From contig JBMFKU010000012.1 in assembly GCA_049971805.1 (NCBI GenBank), positions 1-38,802 on the forward strand: 38,802 nucleotides of DNA, written 5' to 3'. Position numbers and translations under genes: made by a program. The notes beneath the pieces are model-generated. The model had not been told where the DNA came from, did not search any database, and worked only from the letters and a program-made list of their open reading frames with translations. Below, piece by piece: positions 21,269 through 33,569 of the stretch (positions within the stretch are counted from its first letter, which is position 1; every line of letters starts with the position of its first letter). Source of the stretch: Caldisphaera sp. GTDB lineage: Archaea; Thermoproteota; Thermoprotei_A; Sulfolobales; Acidilobaceae.

Positions 21269-22846
21269 GTGGTGGTTAAAATGGATGAAAATATCTATGT
21301 ATCAATAACTCCTGAAATAGCGCTAGACGAAATTTATGGGTATGCAGGAGGTCTTGGAATATTAGAAGGTGACAAATTTTATGCTGCAGCCTCAAGAAAT
21401 ATGAAGTACTATGAAATAACACTTCTTTATAAAAATGGCTATGTTGACTATGATTTTGATGCAAACGATAATATAATACTTAAGCCCCAATCTCAGCCAA
21501 TACCTTTAGAAGACATTTTAAGACCAGAAAAGGAATTTGAAATTACATTAAAAAGGCAGAAGATCAATGTGAGACCATGGATATATGAAAGGGGAAGATC
21601 CAAGGTAATATTTATTGAAGCTGAGTGCCCTAAATGGGTAAGAGGCTTTTGCAACAGGCTATACATAGAAAATAGCTATGAGGAAAAATTGTATAAATAC
21701 ATATTTTTAGCAAAGGCCTCTGCGTATTATATAAAGAATTATATTGGACTTGATAAAATTAAACATATAGATTTGCAAGAGGCTTATACTACATTACTTA
21801 TATTGGCATTACCAGAATATAAAAATTTCAGGTTCACAACTCATACTCCTGGACCATGGGGGCATCCAACTTTTCCAACACCTATATTATATGAAGAGTT
21901 TGAATTCAACTATCCCGAGGACTTTGTTACATTAACTAAAATTGGATTAGAAAAGGCTACAATTACATATACAGTTTCTGCTAAACACGAAGACATTACA
22001 AAAAAGTTATTTGAAGATTATAAAGATAAAATAACCCACATAACAAATGGAGTTAATCTAAACAGATGGGTACACCCTGCTATAAAGAATCTTATAGAAT
22101 CAAAAGGAATTGAAAACATAACAAAAGAAGAATTGTGGGAAGCACATCAAAAGGCTAAAAAAGATTTGATTTATTTATTGAAAAACTATAAGTTTAATAT
22201 AGACAATTTCTCAGAAAGACCCATTATTTTATATGCTAGAAGAATGACATCATATAAAAGACCTTATTTTATTGCAAATTTCATAGAAGAAAACAATTCT
22301 AATAAAGATACTCTGTTTGTTTTAGGAGGTAAAGCCCACCCTAACGATAAGGAAGGATTAGAACTAGTTAAACAATTTAGGAAGCTATCTAAAAAATATG
22401 ATAACGTTATTTTTATACATGATTATGATGCTATCAAAGCCAAGTTATTAGTTTCAGGTACTGATATACAAACATTTACAGCATTTTCTGGCTGGGAGGC
22501 TTGTGGTACATCATATATGAAATCTCTTGCTAATGGAGTCCCAGTAATAGGCTCAAAGGATGGAGGTGCATTAGAAGTAATAAAACATGAAGAGAACGGA
22601 TGGCTATTTGGAGAAGATATAAGAGATTTAATAAACTTCTATACAGATCCTAAGGCAAAGGAAATTGATGAAAAGGATTATAAAGAATTTTCATCGTATT
22701 TAGAAAAAGCAATAAAAATCTATGGAAGCGATGAATACAAACAAATGGAACTAAATGCAATAAAAATTTCCTATAACTTAGTTGATATAAATAATGTTCT
22801 AGATAAATTATATTTTGAAAAAGAAAATACTAAAGAAAAACCTTAA
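21269..22846 (+). CDS. glgP: Alpha-glucan (glycogen/maltodextrin) phosphorylase, short archaeal form
   Basis: YAGGLG, FTTHTP, ITNGV, ARRMTSYKR, GKAHP and EACGTSYMK (PLP Lys). Confidence 0.9.
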   Translation: MVVKMDENIYVSITPEIALDEIYGYAGGLGILEGDKFYAAASRNMKYYEITLLYKNGYVDYDFDANDNIILKPQSQPIPLEDILRPEKEFEITLKRQKINVRPWIYERGRSKVIFIEAECPKWVRGFCNRLYIENSYEEKLYKYIFLAKASAYYIKNYIGLDKIKHIDLQEAYTTLLILALPEYKNFRFTTHTPGPWGHPTFPTPILYEEFEFNYPEDFVTLTKIGLEKATITYTVSAKHEDITKKLFEDYKDKITHITNGVNLNRWVHPAIKNLIESKGIENITKEELWEAHQKAKKDLIYLLKNYKFNIDNFSERPIILYARRMTSYKRPYFIANFIEENNSNKDTLFVLGGKAHPNDKEGLELVKQFRKLSKKYDNVIFIHDYDAIKAKLLVSGTDIQTFTAFSGWEACGTSYMKSLANGVPVIGSKDGGALEVIKHEENGWLFGEDIRDLINFYTDPKAKEIDEKDYKEFSSYLEKAIKIYGSDEYKQMELNAIKISYNLVDINNVLDKLYFEKENTKEKP

Positions 22847-23651
22847 TTCTTTCTGCTAATTTGCTTGCAGCTTTAAAGAAGCTCGGTCCATAGTGGGCTA
22901 GGCTATCATATTCCATTATAACTATTCTGTTATTTTTTATTGCATCTAAATCACCTAAGCCCCTCTTTTCAAAATTTTTTGAAACTTTCTCTGGCGTAGC
23001 ATTTTCTCCTAGTTTTTGCTCATATACCATTATGTCTGGATTAAATTCTTTGATTTTAGATATGTCTGGATTAATCACGTAAGGTGTTCTCTCTTTCTCA
23101 AATGCATGAGAAATACCCATATAACTAAATGCATCACCAATATAACTATAGGCTCCTACGCTAACAGGACCTCCAAGATCTATCTCATAATAAATTTTAG
23201 CACCCTTTAATATATTGTATAATTTTACAACCTGTTCATTTAGTTCATGAGCTAAACCTCTAGCAGATTCCATCTCATTTATTATCATGCCAGTTATAAT
23301 AACATTATCTAATATTCCATAAATGTTCACAGGCAAAGGTATAGGATAAACCTTATACCCTTTTGATTCTAATTCAGCTATTTTATCTCTTTGCGCTCCA
23401 GTTGTTACTAAAAGCAAATCTGGTTGTAGCTTTTCTAGCAAATTATAATTTACATTTAAGTAAGCACCCACTCTAGGTTTTTTATTTACTTCTGAAGGTT
23501 TATCGCAAAAGAAACTTACTCCAACAACTCTTTCTCCTGCCCCTATTAAATATAACGTCTCAGTAATTGCTGGAGCTAGGCTTACTATTTTTTCTGGATA
23601 ATCCTTTATTTCTATTTCCTTGCTTAATATTTCTGAATAAAGCTTAACCAT
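22830..23651 (-). CDS. BtuF-like cobalamin/Fe-siderophore-binding fold protein with no signal peptide
   Basis: PEKIVSLAPAITETL..IGAG.RVVGVS, LQPDL, NPD and AIKNNRI. Confidence 0.8.
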   Translation of the reverse strand: MVKLYSEILSKEIEIKDYPEKIVSLAPAITETLYLIGAGERVVGVSFFCDKPSEVNKKPRVGAYLNVNYNLLEKLQPDLLLVTTGAQRDKIAELESKGYKVYPIPLPVNIYGILDNVIITGMIINEMESARGLAHELNEQVVKLYNILKGAKIYYEIDLGGPVSVGAYSYIGDAFSYMGISHAFEKERTPYVINPDISKIKEFNPDIMVYEQKLGENATPEKVSKNFEKRGLGDLDAIKNNRIVIMEYDSLAHYGPSFFKAASKLAERIKVFL

Positions 23652-23781
23652 TAGTTAAGCACCATTCAACTTATTGCTAATAACAAGGTTTTTATATCTA
23701 TCTTTCTTTATCACCTTATTTGCTAATTACCTCTATAATTGATTTGCTTACCATTTAGACTATGATGAAAAACCTTTTGAT

Positions 23782-24703
23782 AAAATAAACATAAAACCTT
23801 CTCTTTTAAGTTGGTAATGCATTTAAGGTTTTTTTAAGTAAAACATGGGATTATATGCTTCCCTCAGGCATTGCAAGAGTAATAATAATCAGCTCCTGCT
23901 CCTTATCCTTATTAGGTTGACCTGAAGGAATTTATGAAGTTAATTATGAAAAAAATAAGAACAAATGTTGTTTTCCTCCTTAAAAAAAGAGGTTGAGGAC
24001 CTTATCAAATATTTCATCAAATTTAACGAGAATGAAAGAAGATAAAAGTTCTTTAAGGAAGGTAAAGTAGGTTTTAAAAATTTTATATAAAGGGATTAGA
24101 GCTAAGGAAGACTTCTTTTATTTACAAAAGAAAATTTCTGAAATGCAGTCTTTAAAAGATAAGGCAAGAAATGTTAATGAGCATGAGGCTTATTTAGAGG
24201 CAAATAAAGAAAAGAGGAAAATTGTTTAAAAAGTTGTATAACTGTTTCTTCAAATATATAGAAACTTTTCATCTATTGAATAATGATCTAGGTGTTTCAA
24301 CTGTTTATCTGGGATACCCTTTTAACATTATATAAGATAAAGAAAACAAGTTTACTGTAAACATGTAGTCTTATAGAAAACTCATGAAAGCCATTGAATC
24401 AAAAGCAAAAGAATATGGGATAAAGGTATACGAAATTGTTGAAAATAATACATTAAGATATTATGCTTTACACAATATAGAAATAAAAAGAAAAACTTAG
24501 AAGTGTTATAACTTGTCCATTAAATCATAAATTGCATTCAGATCTAAATGGAGCATTAAATATAATGAAAAAAGGAGAAAAAGTTATAGTAAGAAATGTA
24601 AAGAAACCAATATCTTATATGGTATTTCATAACAAAGTAGCTCCCATAGGTAACCCTCAAGAGCTAGGAAACCCTCACCCTGAAGAGCAAAGAGAGAGGT
24701 CAG
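23782..24703 (+). mobile_element. Decayed IS200/IS605-family element carrying tnpB remnants
   Basis: Left end matches the copies at 1-65 and 36961-37025. The right end ...GAGAGAGGTCAG matches the reverse complement of 36737-36795. TGAT flank at 23778-23781. Confidence 0.85.
23946..24660 (+). pseudogene. tnpB: TnpB pseudogene with deletions, stops and frameshifts
   Basis: Fragments MKKIRTNVV; KEDFFYLQKKI; LGVSTVYLGYPFNII*DKENKFTVNM*SYRKLMKAIESKAKEYGIKVYE; HSDLNGALNI (RuvC III). Confidence 0.88.
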
Positions 24704-24841
24704 ATTTACAATTTATACTTTGTTAATATATTACTAGAAATTTAAGTTTCATAGTTTCCATCATTGATAAAAAATATATATAGCGATTACACATAATTAT
24801 AAAAGTTTTCTGTATTACCACCAAATAAATGGGGAAGGCCA

Positions 24842-26542
24842 ATGCCAAGCTTGTATGATAAAAAAAGTCTAAAAGAAATTAAGGAATCTTTGGATAGGTG
24901 GGAAAAAGATGTTTTACCAGTATGGACAAATCAAACGCCAGAAAGAGAAAAAGAATTTACTACATTAAGCGATATATTAATTAAAGAATTATATACACCA
25001 ATTGATTTAGAAAACTTTGATTATAACGAAAAACTTGGTTTTCCTGGAGTATATCCATATACTAGAGGAATACATGCTACAATGTATAGAGCTAGACTGT
25101 GGACTATGAGAATGTTTAGCGGATTTGGAGGACCAGAAGAAACTAACAAAAGATTGAAATTTTTAATTGAACATGGAGAAACAGGTTTAAGTCTAGCTTT
25201 TGATTATCCAACATTGATTGGTATAGATCCCGATGATTCGATGGCTAAAGGAGAAGTTGGTATTGTTGGGGTAAGCGTACCTACCATAGAGGATATGAAA
25301 ATAATCTTTAATGGAATAAATATGGGAGAAGTTACAACAAACATGACCATTAATCCACCAGCTCCTGTTCTGCTTAGTTTTTATGTAGCAACTGCGGAAG
25401 AGCAAGGCGTAAATTATAACAAGATAGGTGGAACCACACAAAACGATCCTTTGAAAGAATTTATTGCACAAAAGAGCTATGTATTTCCACCAGAGCCTGC
25501 AGTAAGAGTAAGTATGGATCTGATTGAATGGAGCGTTAAAAACCTGCCTAAATGGAATCCCATAAGTATAAGCGGTTATCATATTAGAGAAGCTGGGTCT
25601 ACAGCAGTTCAAGAATTGGCTTTTACAATCGCCGATGGAATAGAGTATGTTAGGCAATTAAAAGCAAGAGGCTTGGATGTTGATGATTTTGCGCCTAGAT
25701 TAAGCTTCTTTTGGGATTCCCATATAAATTTCTTTGAAGAAATAGCTAAATTTAGAGCTGCAAGAAGAATGTGGGCAAAAATTATGAAAGAATGGTTCAA
25801 TGCCAAAAAACCAAGAAGCATGTGGATGAGATTCCATACACAAACAGCAGGTGTATCGTTAACAGCTCAGCAGCCATGGAACAACATAATAAGGACTACT
25901 ATAGAAGCAATGGCAGCAGTTCTTGGAGGCACGCAGAGTTTGCATACAAATAGCTTTGATGAGCCCTTTAGAGTACCAAGCGAATTTGCAGCAAAAATTG
26001 CTCTAAGAACCCAGCAAATAATAGCATACGAATCAGGTATAACAGATACCATAGATCCTCTTGCAGGCAGCTATTATGTTGAATGGTTAACAGATGAGGT
26101 AGAAAAAAGAGCATGGGATTATATTGATAGAATAGAAAAATTGGGTGGTATGTTGGAGGCTGTTAAAAAAGGATATCCGCAAAGAGAACTTACTGAAGCA
26201 AGCTATAATTATCAAAAATATGTTGAAGATAAGAAAAAATACATAGTAGGAGTTAATATATTTGAAGATAATCAAATAGATGAGATAAGGAATGTACCTT
26301 TATTAGAGTATGACCAAGAAAGCATAGAAAAAAGACAGAAGGAAAGATTATCAAAAATAAGAAGCAATAGAAATAAGGAATTTTGGGAAAGATCGTTAGA
26401 TGAGCTAAGAAAAGCTGCAGAAAAAAATGAAAATGTTATGCCATACATATTACAAGCAGCAAAAGCTAGAGCAACCTTGGGAGAAATAATGAATACATTA
26501 AAAGAGGTGTTTGGTACTTATGTTGAACCTCCAATTTACTAA
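24842..26542 (+). CDS. AdoCbl-dependent acyl-CoA mutase large subunit with ICM-type signature
   Basis: [42 protein letters not shown] and [14 protein letters not shown]92/Q210 at the specificity positions. Confidence 0.93.
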
Positions 26543-26966
26543 GGAAAAACAATACAAAGTACTAGTAGCAAAGCTTGGAATAGATGGCCATGACAGGGGA
26601 GCAAAAGTTATAGCAAGAGCACTAAAAGATGCAGGATTTGAAGTTATTTACACTGGTATAAGACAGACACCAGAGCAAATAGTGTCTGCTGCATTACAGG
26701 AAGATGTTGATGTAATAGGTATAAGTATATTAAGTGGTGCACACATACATCATATGAAAATATTAATGGAAGAATTAAAAAATGCCAATGCAGAAGACAT
26801 ACCAGTTGTTCTAGGAGGCACAATACCAATAATAGACATTGATCAACTTAAGAAAATTGGTGTTAGAGAGATTTTTTTACCTGGAGATAGCTTAAAAAAA
26901 ATAGCAGATATAGTTAGAGAGCTAGCAGAAGAAAAAAGAAGGAAGGAAGGAAGATATAGAGGTTGA
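26520..26966 (+). CDS. Cobalamin-binding small subunit of the mutase (ATG at 26520; ORF open from 26511)
   Basis: [10 protein letters not shown] (DxHxxG), SILSGAH and GG motifs. GAGGTG SD upstream. Confidence 0.93.
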
Positions 26967-26972
26967 AGCTTT

Positions 26973-27983
26973 TTGTCAAGCGTTTCACAATTAAACATAG
27001 ATGATTTATTGGATAAAGCATCTAATGGTAATATAAGAGCAATAGGCAGGCTATTAAGCTTTTTAGAAGATCCATATACAATGCCTGAAGGGCTTCTAGA
27101 AAAATTAGCCAAGAGAACTGGAAAAGCACAAGTTATAGGAGTTACAGGAATTCCGGGATCTGGTAAAAGCACATTAATTTCTAGACTAATAACCAATTTA
27201 AGAAGAAAAGGATACAAGGTTGCAATAATAGCAATAGATCCAAGCAGCCCTATAAGTGGAGGTGCATTACTAGGAGATAGGCTAAGAATGCAAGAACATG
27301 CTACAGATCCAGGAGTTTTCATAAGAAGCGTTTCGTCTAAAGGCTTAAAGGGAGGATTAAGCCTTGCCGCACTAACAATGATTGAAGCATTTGATGCATT
27401 TGGTTATGATAAAATTATAATAGAAACTGTTGGTGTTGGGCAATCAGAGGTTGATATTATGAGTGTTGCCCATACAATAGTTGTGGTAACTATGCCTGGT
27501 GCTGGAGATGATATACAAGCACTTAAAGCGGGGGTTATGGAAATAGGAGATATCTATGTGTTAAATAAAGAAGATAAAGAGGAAGCTAACAAAACGTTTG
27601 AATATCTTTCCTTCGCATTGGAAAAAGGAGATGTTGGTAAGAGAGATTCATCATGGAATCCAAAACTTATAAAAACTAGTGCAATTATGGGTAGAGGAAT
27701 TGACGACTTAGTTCAGGCAATAGATGAGCACTACGAATATATAAAATCATCTGAAAAACTTTTCAATAAAGCTATAACTAGGAGAATATTGATGATTAAG
27801 CTATTGGCAGAACAACTATTAGTTGAAAGTATTAAAAGGGCATCAACAAGAACTGAGCAGGAATTAGAAAATGCGGCTAAAGATTCTTCGGAAATTTTCA
27901 ATAAATCTGTTGAGTTAGCAAAAGAAGCATGTAACGAAATAAATAATTTAGTTAAGATTAGCCCAGAACTTAGCAAAAAATAA
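26973..27983 (+). CDS. meaB: MeaB/ArgK GTPase chaperone
   Basis: TGIPGSGKST, DPSSPISGGALLGDRLRM, ETVGVGQSE and GDDIQALKAG. Confidence 0.95.
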   Translation: MSSVSQLNIDDLLDKASNGNIRAIGRLLSFLEDPYTMPEGLLEKLAKRTGKAQVIGVTGIPGSGKSTLISRLITNLRRKGYKVAIIAIDPSSPISGGALLGDRLRMQEHATDPGVFIRSVSSKGLKGGLSLAALTMIEAFDAFGYDKIIIETVGVGQSEVDIMSVAHTIVVVTMPGAGDDIQALKAGVMEIGDIYVLNKEDKEEANKTFEYLSFALEKGDVGKRDSSWNPKLIKTSAIMGRGIDDLVQAIDEHYEYIKSSEKLFNKAITRRILMIKLLAEQLLVESIKRASTRTEQELENAAKDSSEIFNKSVELAKEACNEINNLVKISPELSKK

Positions 27984-27988
27984 TTAAT

Positions 27989-28336
27989 TTATAATAGCAA
28001 ATTCATATTATATATTCTTTCCATAAGATCAACTATAGCTTCATCTGCTGCATTTAACGCCCTAATAATTTGATTTGAATCATTTATTTTTAATACTGAT
28101 AGTTCCAAACCCTCTATCCTTCTATAGAGTCTTATATAATCCTCTCCAAACAATTGCTTTGGTATAGAAATTAATAATGCCTTAATACTAGAGATGTAAT
28201 TTTTTAGTGTAATATAAACCTTTTCCAAATCTAGTTCACTGTTGGATAGATTTATTCTAGATCTTAATTCTATTATATTTTTTACTTGAGGTATTACAAC
28301 GACTTTTATGAACTCATCACTTAGTTCTTTTGCCAA
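27989..28336 (-). CDS. Hypothetical helical protein
   Basis: 115-aa ORF filling the intergenic space with typical composition. Confidence 0.6.
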   Translation of the reverse strand: MAKELSDEFIKVVVIPQVKNIIELRSRINLSNSELDLEKVYITLKNYISSIKALLISIPKQLFGEDYIRLYRRIEGLELSVLKINDSNQIIRALNAADEAIVDLMERIYNMNLLL

Positions 28337-28373
28337 TTATTCTCACAACCACCTTTAATTCTTATTCGCTAGG

Positions 28374-28418
28374 TAATTAATTTTATTATAATTAATTTTA
28401 TTATAATTAATTTTATTA
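28374..28418. repeat. Perfect tandem repeat, 3 x TAATTAATTTTATTA
   Basis: Exact copies at 28374-28388, 28389-28403 and 28404-28418. Confidence 0.9.
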
Positions 28419-28459
28419 AGCTATCTTTATTAGGGAAAATAAATACGCGTTGCAATTAG

Positions 28460-28735
28460 GTGAAAAGTTTGAGTGAACAAAGAAAAGCTCAAGAAAAGCA
28501 AGGACAACATGAATCATCTATAACTGAAGAACTAGGTTTTCCAGCAGAAGTAATTCAACTTATCGGAAGAACTGGTGTAGCTGGTGAAGTAACACAGGTC
28601 AGAGTTAGAATATTAGAAGGCAAGGATAAGGGCAGAATTATTACAAGAAATGTTATGGGTGCCGTTAGAATAGGGGACGTAGTAATTTTAAGAGAAACAG
28701 AAAGAGAGGCTAGAAAGCTTACAAGAAAGAGGTAA
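28460..28735 (+). CDS. rps28e: 30S ribosomal protein S28e (start possibly TTG at 28469)
   Basis: [31 protein letters not shown] and ETEREAR. Confidence 0.96.
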
Positions 28736-28744
28736 ATTAATTAT

Positions 28745-29200
28745 ATGAATTTTATCTTAAACAGCATTTTAATTATAATAATATCCATTATAATTTCAAG
28801 CCTTATAGGTTATTTTGTTGGAATTTATTCTTCAAAAAATTTTTTAAAAAAATATAAATTGATATTAAAAATAAAACAAAAAAACAATACAAAAATTAGA
28901 AAACGCTATATAGTTTTTGAAATATTATCAACAAATCCAATTGATATAGGTTTGTTAGAAAGTACAATAATAGAGAAATTTAAAGAGCTCTATGGAACTA
29001 CTATTCTTTCAGATTCTTATATTAAATTGATAGGCTTTAATGAAGAATCAAAAAGAGGTATTATACGTATTAGATCTGAATATGTTAATAATTTAATTGC
29101 AACAATAAGTCTTATAAGAAAAATCGGCAAAGATGATCTAATAATAATTCCAGTAAGAGCAAGCGGCACAATAAAAAAGGCTAAGAAATTTATACTTTAA
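28745..29200 (+). CDS. rnp2: RNase P protein Pop5/Rpp14 with an N-terminal hydrophobic helix
   Basis: RKRYIVFEI, ELYG, GIIR and SGTIKKA. Confidence 0.85.
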   Translation: MNFILNSILIIIISIIISSLIGYFVGIYSSKNFLKKYKLILKIKQKNNTKIRKRYIVFEILSTNPIDIGLLESTIIEKFKELYGTTILSDSYIKLIGFNEESKRGIIRIRSEYVNNLIATISLIRKIGKDDLIIIPVRASGTIKKAKKFIL

Positions 29201-31543: not shown

Positions 31544-32677
31544 TTGAAACTGTTTGAGTTTGAAGCAAAAAATATAGTAAAAAATTTTGGATTTGATGTG
31601 CCTCCAAGTGTTTTAATAAAAAAGGGTGATGATATAGAAAAAAAGATCAAAGAGGCTAAAATAGAACCACCTTTGGTAGTAAAGGCCCAAGTGTTAGTTG
31701 CTGGAAGAGGTAAATCAGGTGGGATAAAATTAGTGAAAACTGTTGATGAGGCAGTAAAAACTGCCCAAACTTTATTTGAAACACCAATAAAGGGAATAAA
31801 ACCGACCTTTATATTAATAGAAAAAGCTATACCGCATGAAAAGGAGCTTTATGTTGGAATAGTCATTGATAGAACCCTAAGGAAGCCTATAGTTTTAGCA
31901 TCTCAATTTGGTGGAGTTGATATAGAAGAGATTGCAAGAACAAAGCCAGAAAGCATAATCAGATATCCCATTGATACAGTTATTGGATTAAGAAACTATG
32001 AAGCAAGACTTATAGGAAAGAACATAGGCGTTAAAGGCAAGGCACTAACGAGTTTTGAAAAATTCTTAACTACATTGTACAGGGCTTTCGTTGAATATGA
32101 TGCAGAACTAGCTGAAAGCAATCCTCTAGCATATCTTGATGATAAAGTTTTACCATTAGACCTTAGAATTACAATGGATGATAATAGTTTATTTAGACAT
32201 GAAGACTTTGCAAAGACTGAAGAGGAAAGACTTGGAGAAAATACTGAATATGAAATCAAAGCTCATGAAATGGATTTAGCATTTGTTGAATTAGATGGTG
32301 ACGTAGGAGTTCTAGGAAACGGAGCAGGTCTCACTATGACAACGATGGATTTAATTTATGAGTATGGAGGCAAGCCAGCTAACTTCCTTGATATGGGAGG
32401 AGGAGCTGATGCTGATCATGTAAAAGCTTGTGTTAAGTTTTTACTAGATTATCCAAAAGCTAAAAAAATATTTATAAATATGTTTGGAGGCATTACGAGA
32501 GCTGATGAGGTTGCAAAGGGTGTTGTTATGGCATTAAATGAATCATCAAACAAAAAGCCTATAGTAATAAGATTAACCGGAACCAATGAAGAGCTTGGTA
32601 GAAAGATATTAAAAGAAGCAGGCATAGAAGCGTTTAATGATCCTATAGAAGCTGTTAAAGTTGCAATTAGTAAATGA
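31544..32677 (+). CDS. sucC: Succinyl-CoA synthetase beta subunit
   Basis: [40 protein letters not shown] and NMFGGI. Confidence 0.95.
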
Positions 32678-32687
32678 GGTGAGAAAG

Positions 32688-33569
32688 ATGGGTATATTAG
32701 TTGATGAGAATACTAGGTTAATAGTCCAAGGAATAACTGGCAATGAAGGCTCTTTCCATACTAAGTTGATGCTTGAATATGGGACTAAAATAGTTGCAGG
32801 TGTTACTCCAGGTAAAGGTGGATCAAAAGTATATGATATACCAATTTATGATACCGTTGCAGAAGCTGTAAAAGAACATCCAGAAGCAAACACTTCTATC
32901 ATATTTGTTCCAGCAAAATTTGCAGCAGATGCAGTATATGAAGCCGTTGATTCCAATTTAAAATTTGTTGTAGTAATAACTGAGCATATACCAGTTCACG
33001 ATGCATTGGAATTTGTCAATTATGCTAAATCAAAGGGTACAAATATCATAGGACCTAATTGCCCAGGTGCCATTACACCTGAAAAAGCTAAAGTTGGTAT
33101 AATGCCAGGCCATGTATTTATACCAGGTCCTGTTGGTATTGCTTCAAGAAGTGGAACCTTAACATATGAGGTAAGCTATGCCTTAACAAGAAGCGGTATA
33201 GGACAATCCACGGTTTTAGGGATTGGAGGAGATCCGGTAATAGGTATGACCTTCACTGAAGTAATGGAGTATTATGAAAAAGATCCGCAAACTAAGGCAT
33301 TGATCATAGTTGGTGAAATAGGAGGAGATGCAGAAGAAAGAGCGGCAAAGATGGTAGAAGAAAAACGTTTTACCAAACCAGTGGTTGGATTTATAGCAGG
33401 CAGAACAGCACCAGAAGGTAAAAGAATGGGTCATGCAGGAGCTATAATAATGCTTGGATCAGGAACATATAAGGACAAAGTAGAAACACTAGAAAGCGTA
33501 GGAATAAAGGTAGCTAAAACCCCATTTGAATTACCTAAGTTAATAAATGATGCACTAAAAGGAAAATAA
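32688..33569 (+). CDS. sucD: Succinyl-CoA synthetase alpha subunit (ATG at 32688 after GAGGTGA)
   Basis: [34 protein letters not shown] and RMGHAGA. Confidence 0.96.

Follow-up and report, generated by a model that had tools for sequence, protein, structure and literature searches.

In methylmalonyl-CoA mutase (MCM, EC 5.4.99.2), the carboxylate of the substrate is held by Tyr89 and Arg207 (Propionibacterium shermanii numbering), and the presence of Phe and Gln at these two positions is the mark of isobutyryl-CoA mutase (ICM) and of IcmF. Here we analysed a window of 38,802 nucleotides from Caldisphaera sp. (positions 1 to 38,802 of contig JBMFKU010000012.1, assembly GCA_049971805.1), in which an operon on the forward strand, at 24842..27983, encodes a split acyl-CoA mutase and a MeaB GTPase; dependence on adenosylcobalamin (AdoCbl) is predicted from the family that these proteins share with characterised mutases. 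The best functionally named relative of solved structure is the 2-hydroxyisobutyryl-CoA mutase (HCM) HcmA (PDB 4r3u), both for the large subunit (557.7 bits) and for the small one (120.8 bits), and the large subunit also matches human MCM (491.2 bits) and P. shermanii MCM (465.0 bits). At the two positions that hold the carboxylate, the large subunit has neither residue of MCM, and of the three signature residues of HCM it has only the Gln. We propose, with a probability of roughly 0.6, that this enzyme is a mutase of the isobutyryl-CoA/n-butyryl-CoA type.

The proposal starts from two positions of the large, substrate-binding subunit (P0001, 24842..26542, +, 566 amino acids). The motif WTMRMFSGF places a Phe at position 92 (codon 25115-25117, +) and the motif KEFIAQK places a Gln at position 210 (codon CAA, 25469..25471, +), 118 residues apart. 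The initial annotation had equated this pair with Tyr89 and Arg207 of MCM, and the HMMER alignment to the P. shermanii enzyme (PDB 1req), which runs without gaps over both motifs, bears this out: Phe92 pairs with Tyr89 (wtirqYagf) and Gln210 with Arg207 (kefmvRntyi). It had also pointed to a Met in place of the Gln that precedes the aromatic residue, and Met91 indeed lies on Gln88 in the same alignment (codons of Met91 and Phe92, ATG TTT, 25112..25117, +). The catalytic residues Gln197, Tyr243 and His244 of MCM are retained as Gln200, Tyr246 and His247. The enzyme therefore has the Phe and Gln expected of an ICM at the aligned positions, as well as its division into separate large and small subunits, and has neither the Tyr nor the Arg of an MCM. 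Since the residues that hold the carboxylate are replaced, the substrate is most likely uncharged.

This signature is not a peculiarity of one genome. In the set of the 120 nearest homologues from the database (the query being one of them, 73-100% identity), Phe92 is found in all 120, Gln210 in 119 and Met91 in 118, the remaining two having Gln at the latter position. As it is nearly universal in this set, the Met-Phe...Gln signature can be regarded as fixed throughout a large clade, to which Aeropyrum pernix, Acidilobus and numerous metagenome-assembled genomes of 'Desulfurococcales' belong; the nearest database relatives belong to Caldisphaeraceae / Caldisphaera sp. (87-90% identity). The only exception at position 210 is P0065, encoded in a metagenome contig and 76% identical to the query, which keeps Phe92 and has Arg at 210 (KEFIARKTY). 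This could be either a genuine variant or a sequencing error.

The content of the genome was also considered. The assembly to which the window belongs (1.52 Mb, 66 contigs, 96.6% complete) encodes a single mutase, and thus no second enzyme of the Tyr/Arg type. Searches of this genome with models for the epimerase (TIGR03081), the carboxyltransferase (PF01039, which spans propionyl-CoA carboxylase, methylmalonyl-CoA decarboxylase and transcarboxylase) and biotin carboxylase (PF02785) gave no match, the same searches being positive in 11, 12 and 13 of 14 control genomes, respectively. The epimerase, noted at the outset to be missing from the gene cluster, is therefore not found anywhere in the assembly, and neither of the two partners that an MCM pathway requires, epimerase and carboxyltransferase, gave a match in it. 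Because none of the three enzymes was found, there is no visible source or sink for methylmalonyl-CoA. Genes able to consume n-butyryl-CoA, on the other hand, are abundant, in line with the link to beta-oxidation that had been suggested for the enzyme. There are eight acyl-CoA dehydrogenase matches, eight enoyl-CoA hydratase matches (three of them in fusions of ~670 amino acids with 3-hydroxyacyl-CoA dehydrogenase) and five thiolase matches, together with five POR_N matches, corresponding to the alpha subunit of 2-oxoacid:ferredoxin oxidoreductases, and one PduO-type adenosyltransferase.

The comparison with other Thermoprotei provided the third line of evidence. In a class sample of 121 genomes, with families labelled f1 (the family of the window), f2, f3, f4, f8, f9, f10 and f15, a mutase match was present in 59 genomes, including 19/19 of f1, 24/24 of f4, 4/4 of f8, 2/2 of f9, 1/1 of f10, 7/9 of f15 and 1/6 of f3; there was none among the 24 genomes of f2, and likewise none in several further families. 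Phe/Gln was read in 20 loci of f1 (the genome of the window counted), one of f3, two of f9 and five of f15. Arg at the second site was read in 13 loci of f4, three of f8 and one of f10, and 16 of these 17 have Tyr at the first site; in the other one, L063, the pattern matched an upstream stretch. An epimerase above the cut-off occurs in all genomes of f4 (24/24), f8 (4/4) and f10 (1/1), with its gene at ~20-120 bp from that of the Tyr/Arg mutase in the coordinate pairs compared, and in none of f1 (0/19), f9 (0/2), f15 (0/9) or f3 (0/6). The sole match to the epimerase model in f1, in genome G112, scored 91 bits, under the cut-off of 114.95. An order sample of 111 genomes gave the same picture for the epimerase (f4 11/11, f8 11/12 and f10 8/8; f1, f9 and f3 0/12 each) and for the carboxyltransferase (f4 11/11, f8 12/12 and f10 8/8; f1 and f9 0/12 each), the latter also occurring in several families without a mutase. 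In the genomes searched, Tyr/Arg tracks the methylmalonyl pathway and Phe/Gln tracks its absence, with no exception. Taken together, the residues, the missing methylmalonyl partners and the epimerase pattern in sister families support the uncharged acyl-CoA substrate put forward in the initial annotation.

The arrangement of the genes was recorded for the two types as well. In 22 of 24 Phe/Gln loci, the genes for the two subunits and for MeaB are clustered; of the other two, one ends at a contig edge and one has no MeaB in the 1.1 kb covered downstream. Neither a small subunit nor a MeaB gene was found within 1.5 kb of the mutase in any of six f4 loci. A single mutase match per genome is the rule nearly throughout the class sample, the exceptions being G119, with two fragments, and G037, with a second paralogue. 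This paralogue, from f15 (L062, G037:C175:300-2250), is 47% identical and reads WTIRMVSGY, with Met-Val for Gln-Tyr; no recognisable KEF..R/Q motif was found in it.

In a careful tree of 46 rows, from which the long-branch sequences P0146, P0185, P0138 and P0149 had been removed beforehand and in which the bootstrap is not fully settled, the Phe/Gln enzymes of Thermoprotei (f15, f9 and f1/f3) form a clade of 15 rows with support of 97/95, and the Tyr/Arg enzymes of Thermoprotei form a separate clade of 11 rows with support of 100/100. FastTree and a quick IQ-TREE run had placed the Sulfolobaceae-type Tyr/Arg MCMs within or next to Phe/Gln groups. This nesting was rejected, since a tree constrained to keep all 21 Tyr/Arg rows together is likelier than the free quick tree, with a log-likelihood 28.8 higher and a p-AU of 0.896.

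The other features of the operon are those of the AdoCbl-dependent acyl-CoA mutase superfamily (PF01642), namely the barrel, the B12 domain with its DxHxxG motif and the MeaB partner. The large subunit, which has a TIM-barrel, matches TIGR00641 (acyl-CoA mutase N-terminal domain) with 855.9 bits against a cut-off of 303.8, and its identity of 43-50% to solved mutases settles its fold. The B12-binding small subunit (P0002, 26511..26966, +, 151 amino acids) matches TIGR00640 (C-terminal B12-binding domain) with 156.3 bits against a cut-off of 57.45. Its start is ambiguous, either the TTG at 26511 or the ATG at 26520, and its gene overlaps the 3' end of the large-subunit gene; the DxHxxG motif reads D25-G-H27-D-R-G30, and its His is encoded at 26589-26591 (+). 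The third gene (P0003, 26973..27983, +, 336 amino acids) encodes a MeaB-type G-protein chaperone that matches TIGR00750 (MeaB GTPase) with 374.2 bits against a cut-off of 240.75 and has the P-loop GIPGSGKST at 27147-27173 (+). The codons of both motifs were checked.

By analogy with the family, the small subunit would bind AdoCbl, with His27 of the DxHxxG motif as the lower ligand, and homolysis of the Co-C bond would give a 5'-deoxyadenosyl radical. This radical would take a hydrogen from the acyl-CoA held in the barrel of the large subunit, the thioester carbonyl group would move to the adjacent carbon, and isobutyryl-CoA and n-butyryl-CoA would thus be interconverted. MeaB may gate the loading and repair of the cofactor, and the PduO-type adenosyltransferase, the gene of which lies in another part of the genome, may supply the AdoCbl itself. 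In a peptide-using archaeon that has no biotin carboxylase, isobutyryl-CoA derived from valine could in this way be turned into n-butyryl-CoA, and this into two acetyl-CoA by the acyl-CoA dehydrogenases, the hydratase/dehydrogenase fusions and the thiolases.

A number of observations weigh against this assignment and must be taken into account. The top solved relative is HcmA and not IcmF, and among the NCBIfam equivalogs the one for MCM (NF006944, 621.3 bits, cut-off 876) outscores the one for IcmF (NF045497, 341.2 bits, cut-off 1500), both scores being below the cut-off; the MCM model describes a fused form of 721 positions, and its shortfall is partly one of length. The Phe/Gln mark of ICM and IcmF was brought to the comparison as background knowledge, and the rows of the careful tree do not include the characterised IcmA, IcmF or pivalyl-CoA mutase. 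The backbone of this tree is an unresolved comb, and for this reason we make no claim on the ancestral state, on the number or direction of the switches or on a link to bacterial ICMs. In other Phe/Gln clades the position of Met91 is taken by Gln, Leu, Pro or Glu, and the Met may point to a preference for another substrate. The genomes sampled are related to one another, so that the counts for the families are not independent. As to the metabolic context, an aldehyde dehydrogenase (C41:3-1376, L072) passes the model for methylmalonate-semialdehyde dehydrogenase (MMSDH) with 480.3 against 448.5 bits, which leaves room for a classical degradation of valine down to propionyl-CoA. A search of the genome for a class-IV aminotransferase gave no match, and gave none in the Sulfolobus control either, and no gene of branched-chain metabolism or beta-oxidation adjoins the operon. 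Finally, the genes for the beta and alpha subunits of succinyl-CoA synthetase (sucCD) follow the operon at a distance of 3.5 kb (31544-33569, +).

The alternative that best withstands the evidence keeps the chemistry and changes the substrate: the enzyme would prefer another uncharged acyl-CoA, the candidates being the isovaleryl-/pivalyl-CoA and 2-methylbutyryl-/n-valeryl-CoA pairs from leucine or isoleucine, with the more apolar Met91 shaping the pocket. We regard this as possible, although a good deal less probable than the isobutyryl-CoA assignment. Met91 replaces the Gln of MCM, of HCM and of several Phe/Gln clades and is almost invariant in the clade of the window, and IcmF is described, in a passage of one publication, as also interconverting pivalyl-CoA and isovaleryl-CoA (PMC10481361). 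Moreover, the specificity of the family seems to be plastic, because very many combinations of signature residues occur among its representatives. Against a C5 substrate, no feature of the sequence indicates a specific one, and the variety of residues that other Phe/Gln clades have at the position of Met91 suggests that this position is tolerant.

A broader view, which we hold to be rather unlikely, is that the Met-Phe...Gln enzyme of the Acidilobaceae type is more than an ICM, namely a thermophilic archaeal mutase with a preferred branched C4-C5 substrate of its own, that it enables a catabolism of branched chains free of carboxylation, and that there are two metabolic designs among Thermoprotei. 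If this were true, the sole B12 mutase of these heterotrophs would let them, lacking biotin carboxylase, burn the skeletons of branched-chain amino acids fully through beta-oxidation, a step for which no propionyl-CoA carboxylation route would be needed, and the presence of a Phe/Gln enzyme or of a Tyr/Arg MCM would mark the two alternative designs.

That the isobutyryl-CoA type is mistaken and the enzyme is a functional MCM, as its annotation has it, with unusual residues binding the carboxylate, appears improbable. This explanation would account for the database name 'methylmalonyl-CoA mutase family protein', for the position of MCM as the top equivalog, for the nearby sucCD, for an MMSDH-family enzyme as a possible maker of propionyl-CoA and for the Arg210 of the close homologue P0065. 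However, both carboxylate ligands are replaced and the equivalog score stays below its cut-off. The genome of the window yielded no epimerase, carboxyltransferase or biotin carboxylase and the searched genomes of f1, f9 and f15 no partner above the cut-off, whereas all Tyr/Arg families searched carry an epimerase adjoining the mutase. In addition, sucCD is parted from the operon by unrelated genes, some of them on the opposite strand. An enzyme of the HCM/RCM type, interconverting 2-hydroxyisobutyryl-CoA and 3-hydroxybutyryl-CoA, is more improbable still: HcmA is the top solved match, ahead of human MCM, and both proteins have Gln at the Arg207 position, but two of the three signature residues differ and the HCM-like representative P0129 (Ile/Asp/Gln) falls outside the clade of the window in the careful tree.

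The wider family was surveyed by an exhaustive profile-free search, which gathered 24,538 relatives at E <= 0.001. The three signature positions were read in 115 of the best 150 cluster representatives (P0123-P0272), those passing the coverage filter, with 49 Tyr/Ala/Arg, seven Phe/Ala/Gln and 59 other combinations. These 59 have neither Tyr/Arg nor Phe/Gln but show dozens of other pairs at the two specificity positions; this points to many substrate specificities among the acyl-CoA mutases that are so far unassigned. The Phe/Gln type extends beyond the lineage of the window. Plasmid pHTUR01 of Haloterrigena turkmenica (L071, 619779-629461) encodes a Phe/Gln large subunit with WTMRQFAGF and KEFIAQREW, and its neighbours are a B12 subunit, meaB, an acyl-CoA dehydrogenase and a MaoC-type hydratase. 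Two Phe/Gln mutases look fused, namely P0142 (913 amino acids), in which the PDB matches follow the order barrel, B12 domain and MeaB-like GTPase, and P0216 (887 amino acids), with its mutase match at residues 12-512. The relatives of another Phe/Gln representative, P0146, bear only generic 'methylmalonyl-CoA mutase' names and are mostly from Chloroflexi and metagenomes. A plasmid mutase of Streptomyces parvulus was tried as an ICM reference and rejected, as it is of the Tyr/Arg type.

The surroundings of the operon are mostly of a housekeeping kind, with genes for S28e, Rpp14/Pop5, an Rpb7-like protein, leucyl-tRNA synthetase and an XPB-like helicase. Unrelated genes on both strands separate sucCD from the operon, and their proximity is probably a coincidence. 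Upstream, and divergent from the operon, lies a Peripla_BP_2 gene of the BtuF/siderophore type (22830-23651, -), the product of which might serve the uptake of corrinoids; an Rfam scan of 22000-29000 found no family reaching its gathering score, cobalamin riboswitches included. No long open reading frame is present in the gap of 1.2 kb that precedes the mutase gene. At 24198-24726 (+) there are short frame-shifted pieces that, by eye, resemble what we take to be the C-terminal part of an IS200/IS605 TnpB (OrfB), e.g. ...CPLNHKLHSDLNGALNIMKKG, and they are probably the remnant of a decayed transposon. The MMSDH-like gene, at the end of its own contig, has as neighbours MFS transporters, S58 and M20 peptidases and an arginase-family gene, which are uninformative. 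As regards expression, no RNA data set was listed; the three sequencing runs listed are of DNA and come from a single study, and one of them may have given rise to the window.

As had been anticipated, the enzymes of this clade go under the name of 'methylmalonyl-CoA mutase family protein' or of 'coenzyme B12-dependent mutase' in databases, and no paper on a characterised archaeal ICM was found in the literature searched, most papers in subscription journals being outside its coverage. Searches combining Acidilobus, Caldisphaera or Aeropyrum with the mutase literature likewise gave nothing relevant. A passage from 2010 states that ICM 'is only known from bacteria' (PMC2847961), a table on archaea lumps MCM, ICM and MeaA together (PMC2667541), and an 'isobutyryl-CoA mutase subunit B' is merely listed in a proteome of Cuniculiplasma (PMC7285479). 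Our result should be seen as a well-supported re-annotation of a clade, which would add an archaeal member to a known kind of enzyme, and not as a new kind of enzyme.

The re-annotation is of consequence for how these organisms are reconstructed. Taken at face value, the MCM label would lead reconstructions of Caldisphaera, Acidilobus, Aeropyrum and their relatives to draw a link between propionate and succinate with neither epimerase nor carboxylase in the genomes searched, whereas an enzyme of the ICM type would predict a route from valine or isobutyrate through butyryl-CoA to acetyl-CoA. For archaea, a rule of annotation with two types could be adopted: the first is a Tyr/Arg mutase with an adjoining epimerase gene, and the second a Phe/Gln mutase that is accompanied by a B12 subunit of its own and by MeaB, but by no epimerase. 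An assayed member of the second type would be, as far as the literature searched shows, the first characterised archaeal ICM, and a thermostable ICM would be of some interest for biocatalysis with C4 and branched acids.

Among known systems, the Tyr/Arg MCMs of Thermoprotei (f4, f8 and f10), presumably the type of the mutase assayed in Metallosphaera sedula, are close to the enzyme of the window. Their large subunit is 52-60% identical to that of the window, of equal length and also of the split form, and no genome in which a whole gene of this type was found has a second mutase match; they have WTIRQYAGF and KEYIARKNF, or similar motifs, where the window has Phe/Gln. From the clade of the window itself there is probably already a structure, that of the 'Coenzyme B12-dependent mutase' 2yxb (161 amino acids), which matches residues 10-146 of the small subunit with 205.4 bits and keeps DGHDRG. 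We tentatively assign it to this clade as the B12 subunit because its name equals the annotation of the large-subunit homologue of Aeropyrum pernix (P0066); no functional study of this enzyme was found in the literature search.

HcmA resembles the enzyme of the window in its split form and in the Gln at the Arg207 position (wtmrqIagf, gistDfd and keymaQkeyi in 4r3u). In HCM numbering, Ile90 and Asp117 of HcmA correspond to Phe92 and to Ala119 (codon GCT, 25196..25198, +; glslAfd on gistDfd), and since the window has Phe92, Ala119 and Gln210, the Gln is the only signature residue common to both. IcmF of Cupriavidus metallidurans (4xc6) is likewise made up of a B12 domain, a G-protein and a mutase barrel, but joins these modules in a single polypeptide where the window has three genes, so that the enzyme is not an IcmF. 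The match to 4xc6 (282.8 bits) is only the eighth among the PDB matches, far more distant than HcmA or MCM, although a stretch of 61 amino acids around Phe92 aligns to its residues 598-657 with equal lengths on both sides. The fused P0142 differs from IcmF in the order of its modules. The closest parallel would be IcmA/IcmB of Streptomyces cinnamonensis (EC 5.4.99.13), a two-subunit ICM that is likewise split into a large subunit of ~566 amino acids and a small B12 subunit and has Phe/Gln. The enzyme of the window departs from it in belonging to an archaeal thermoacidophile, in having meaB within the operon, in the Met that precedes the Phe and in being the sole mutase of its genome.

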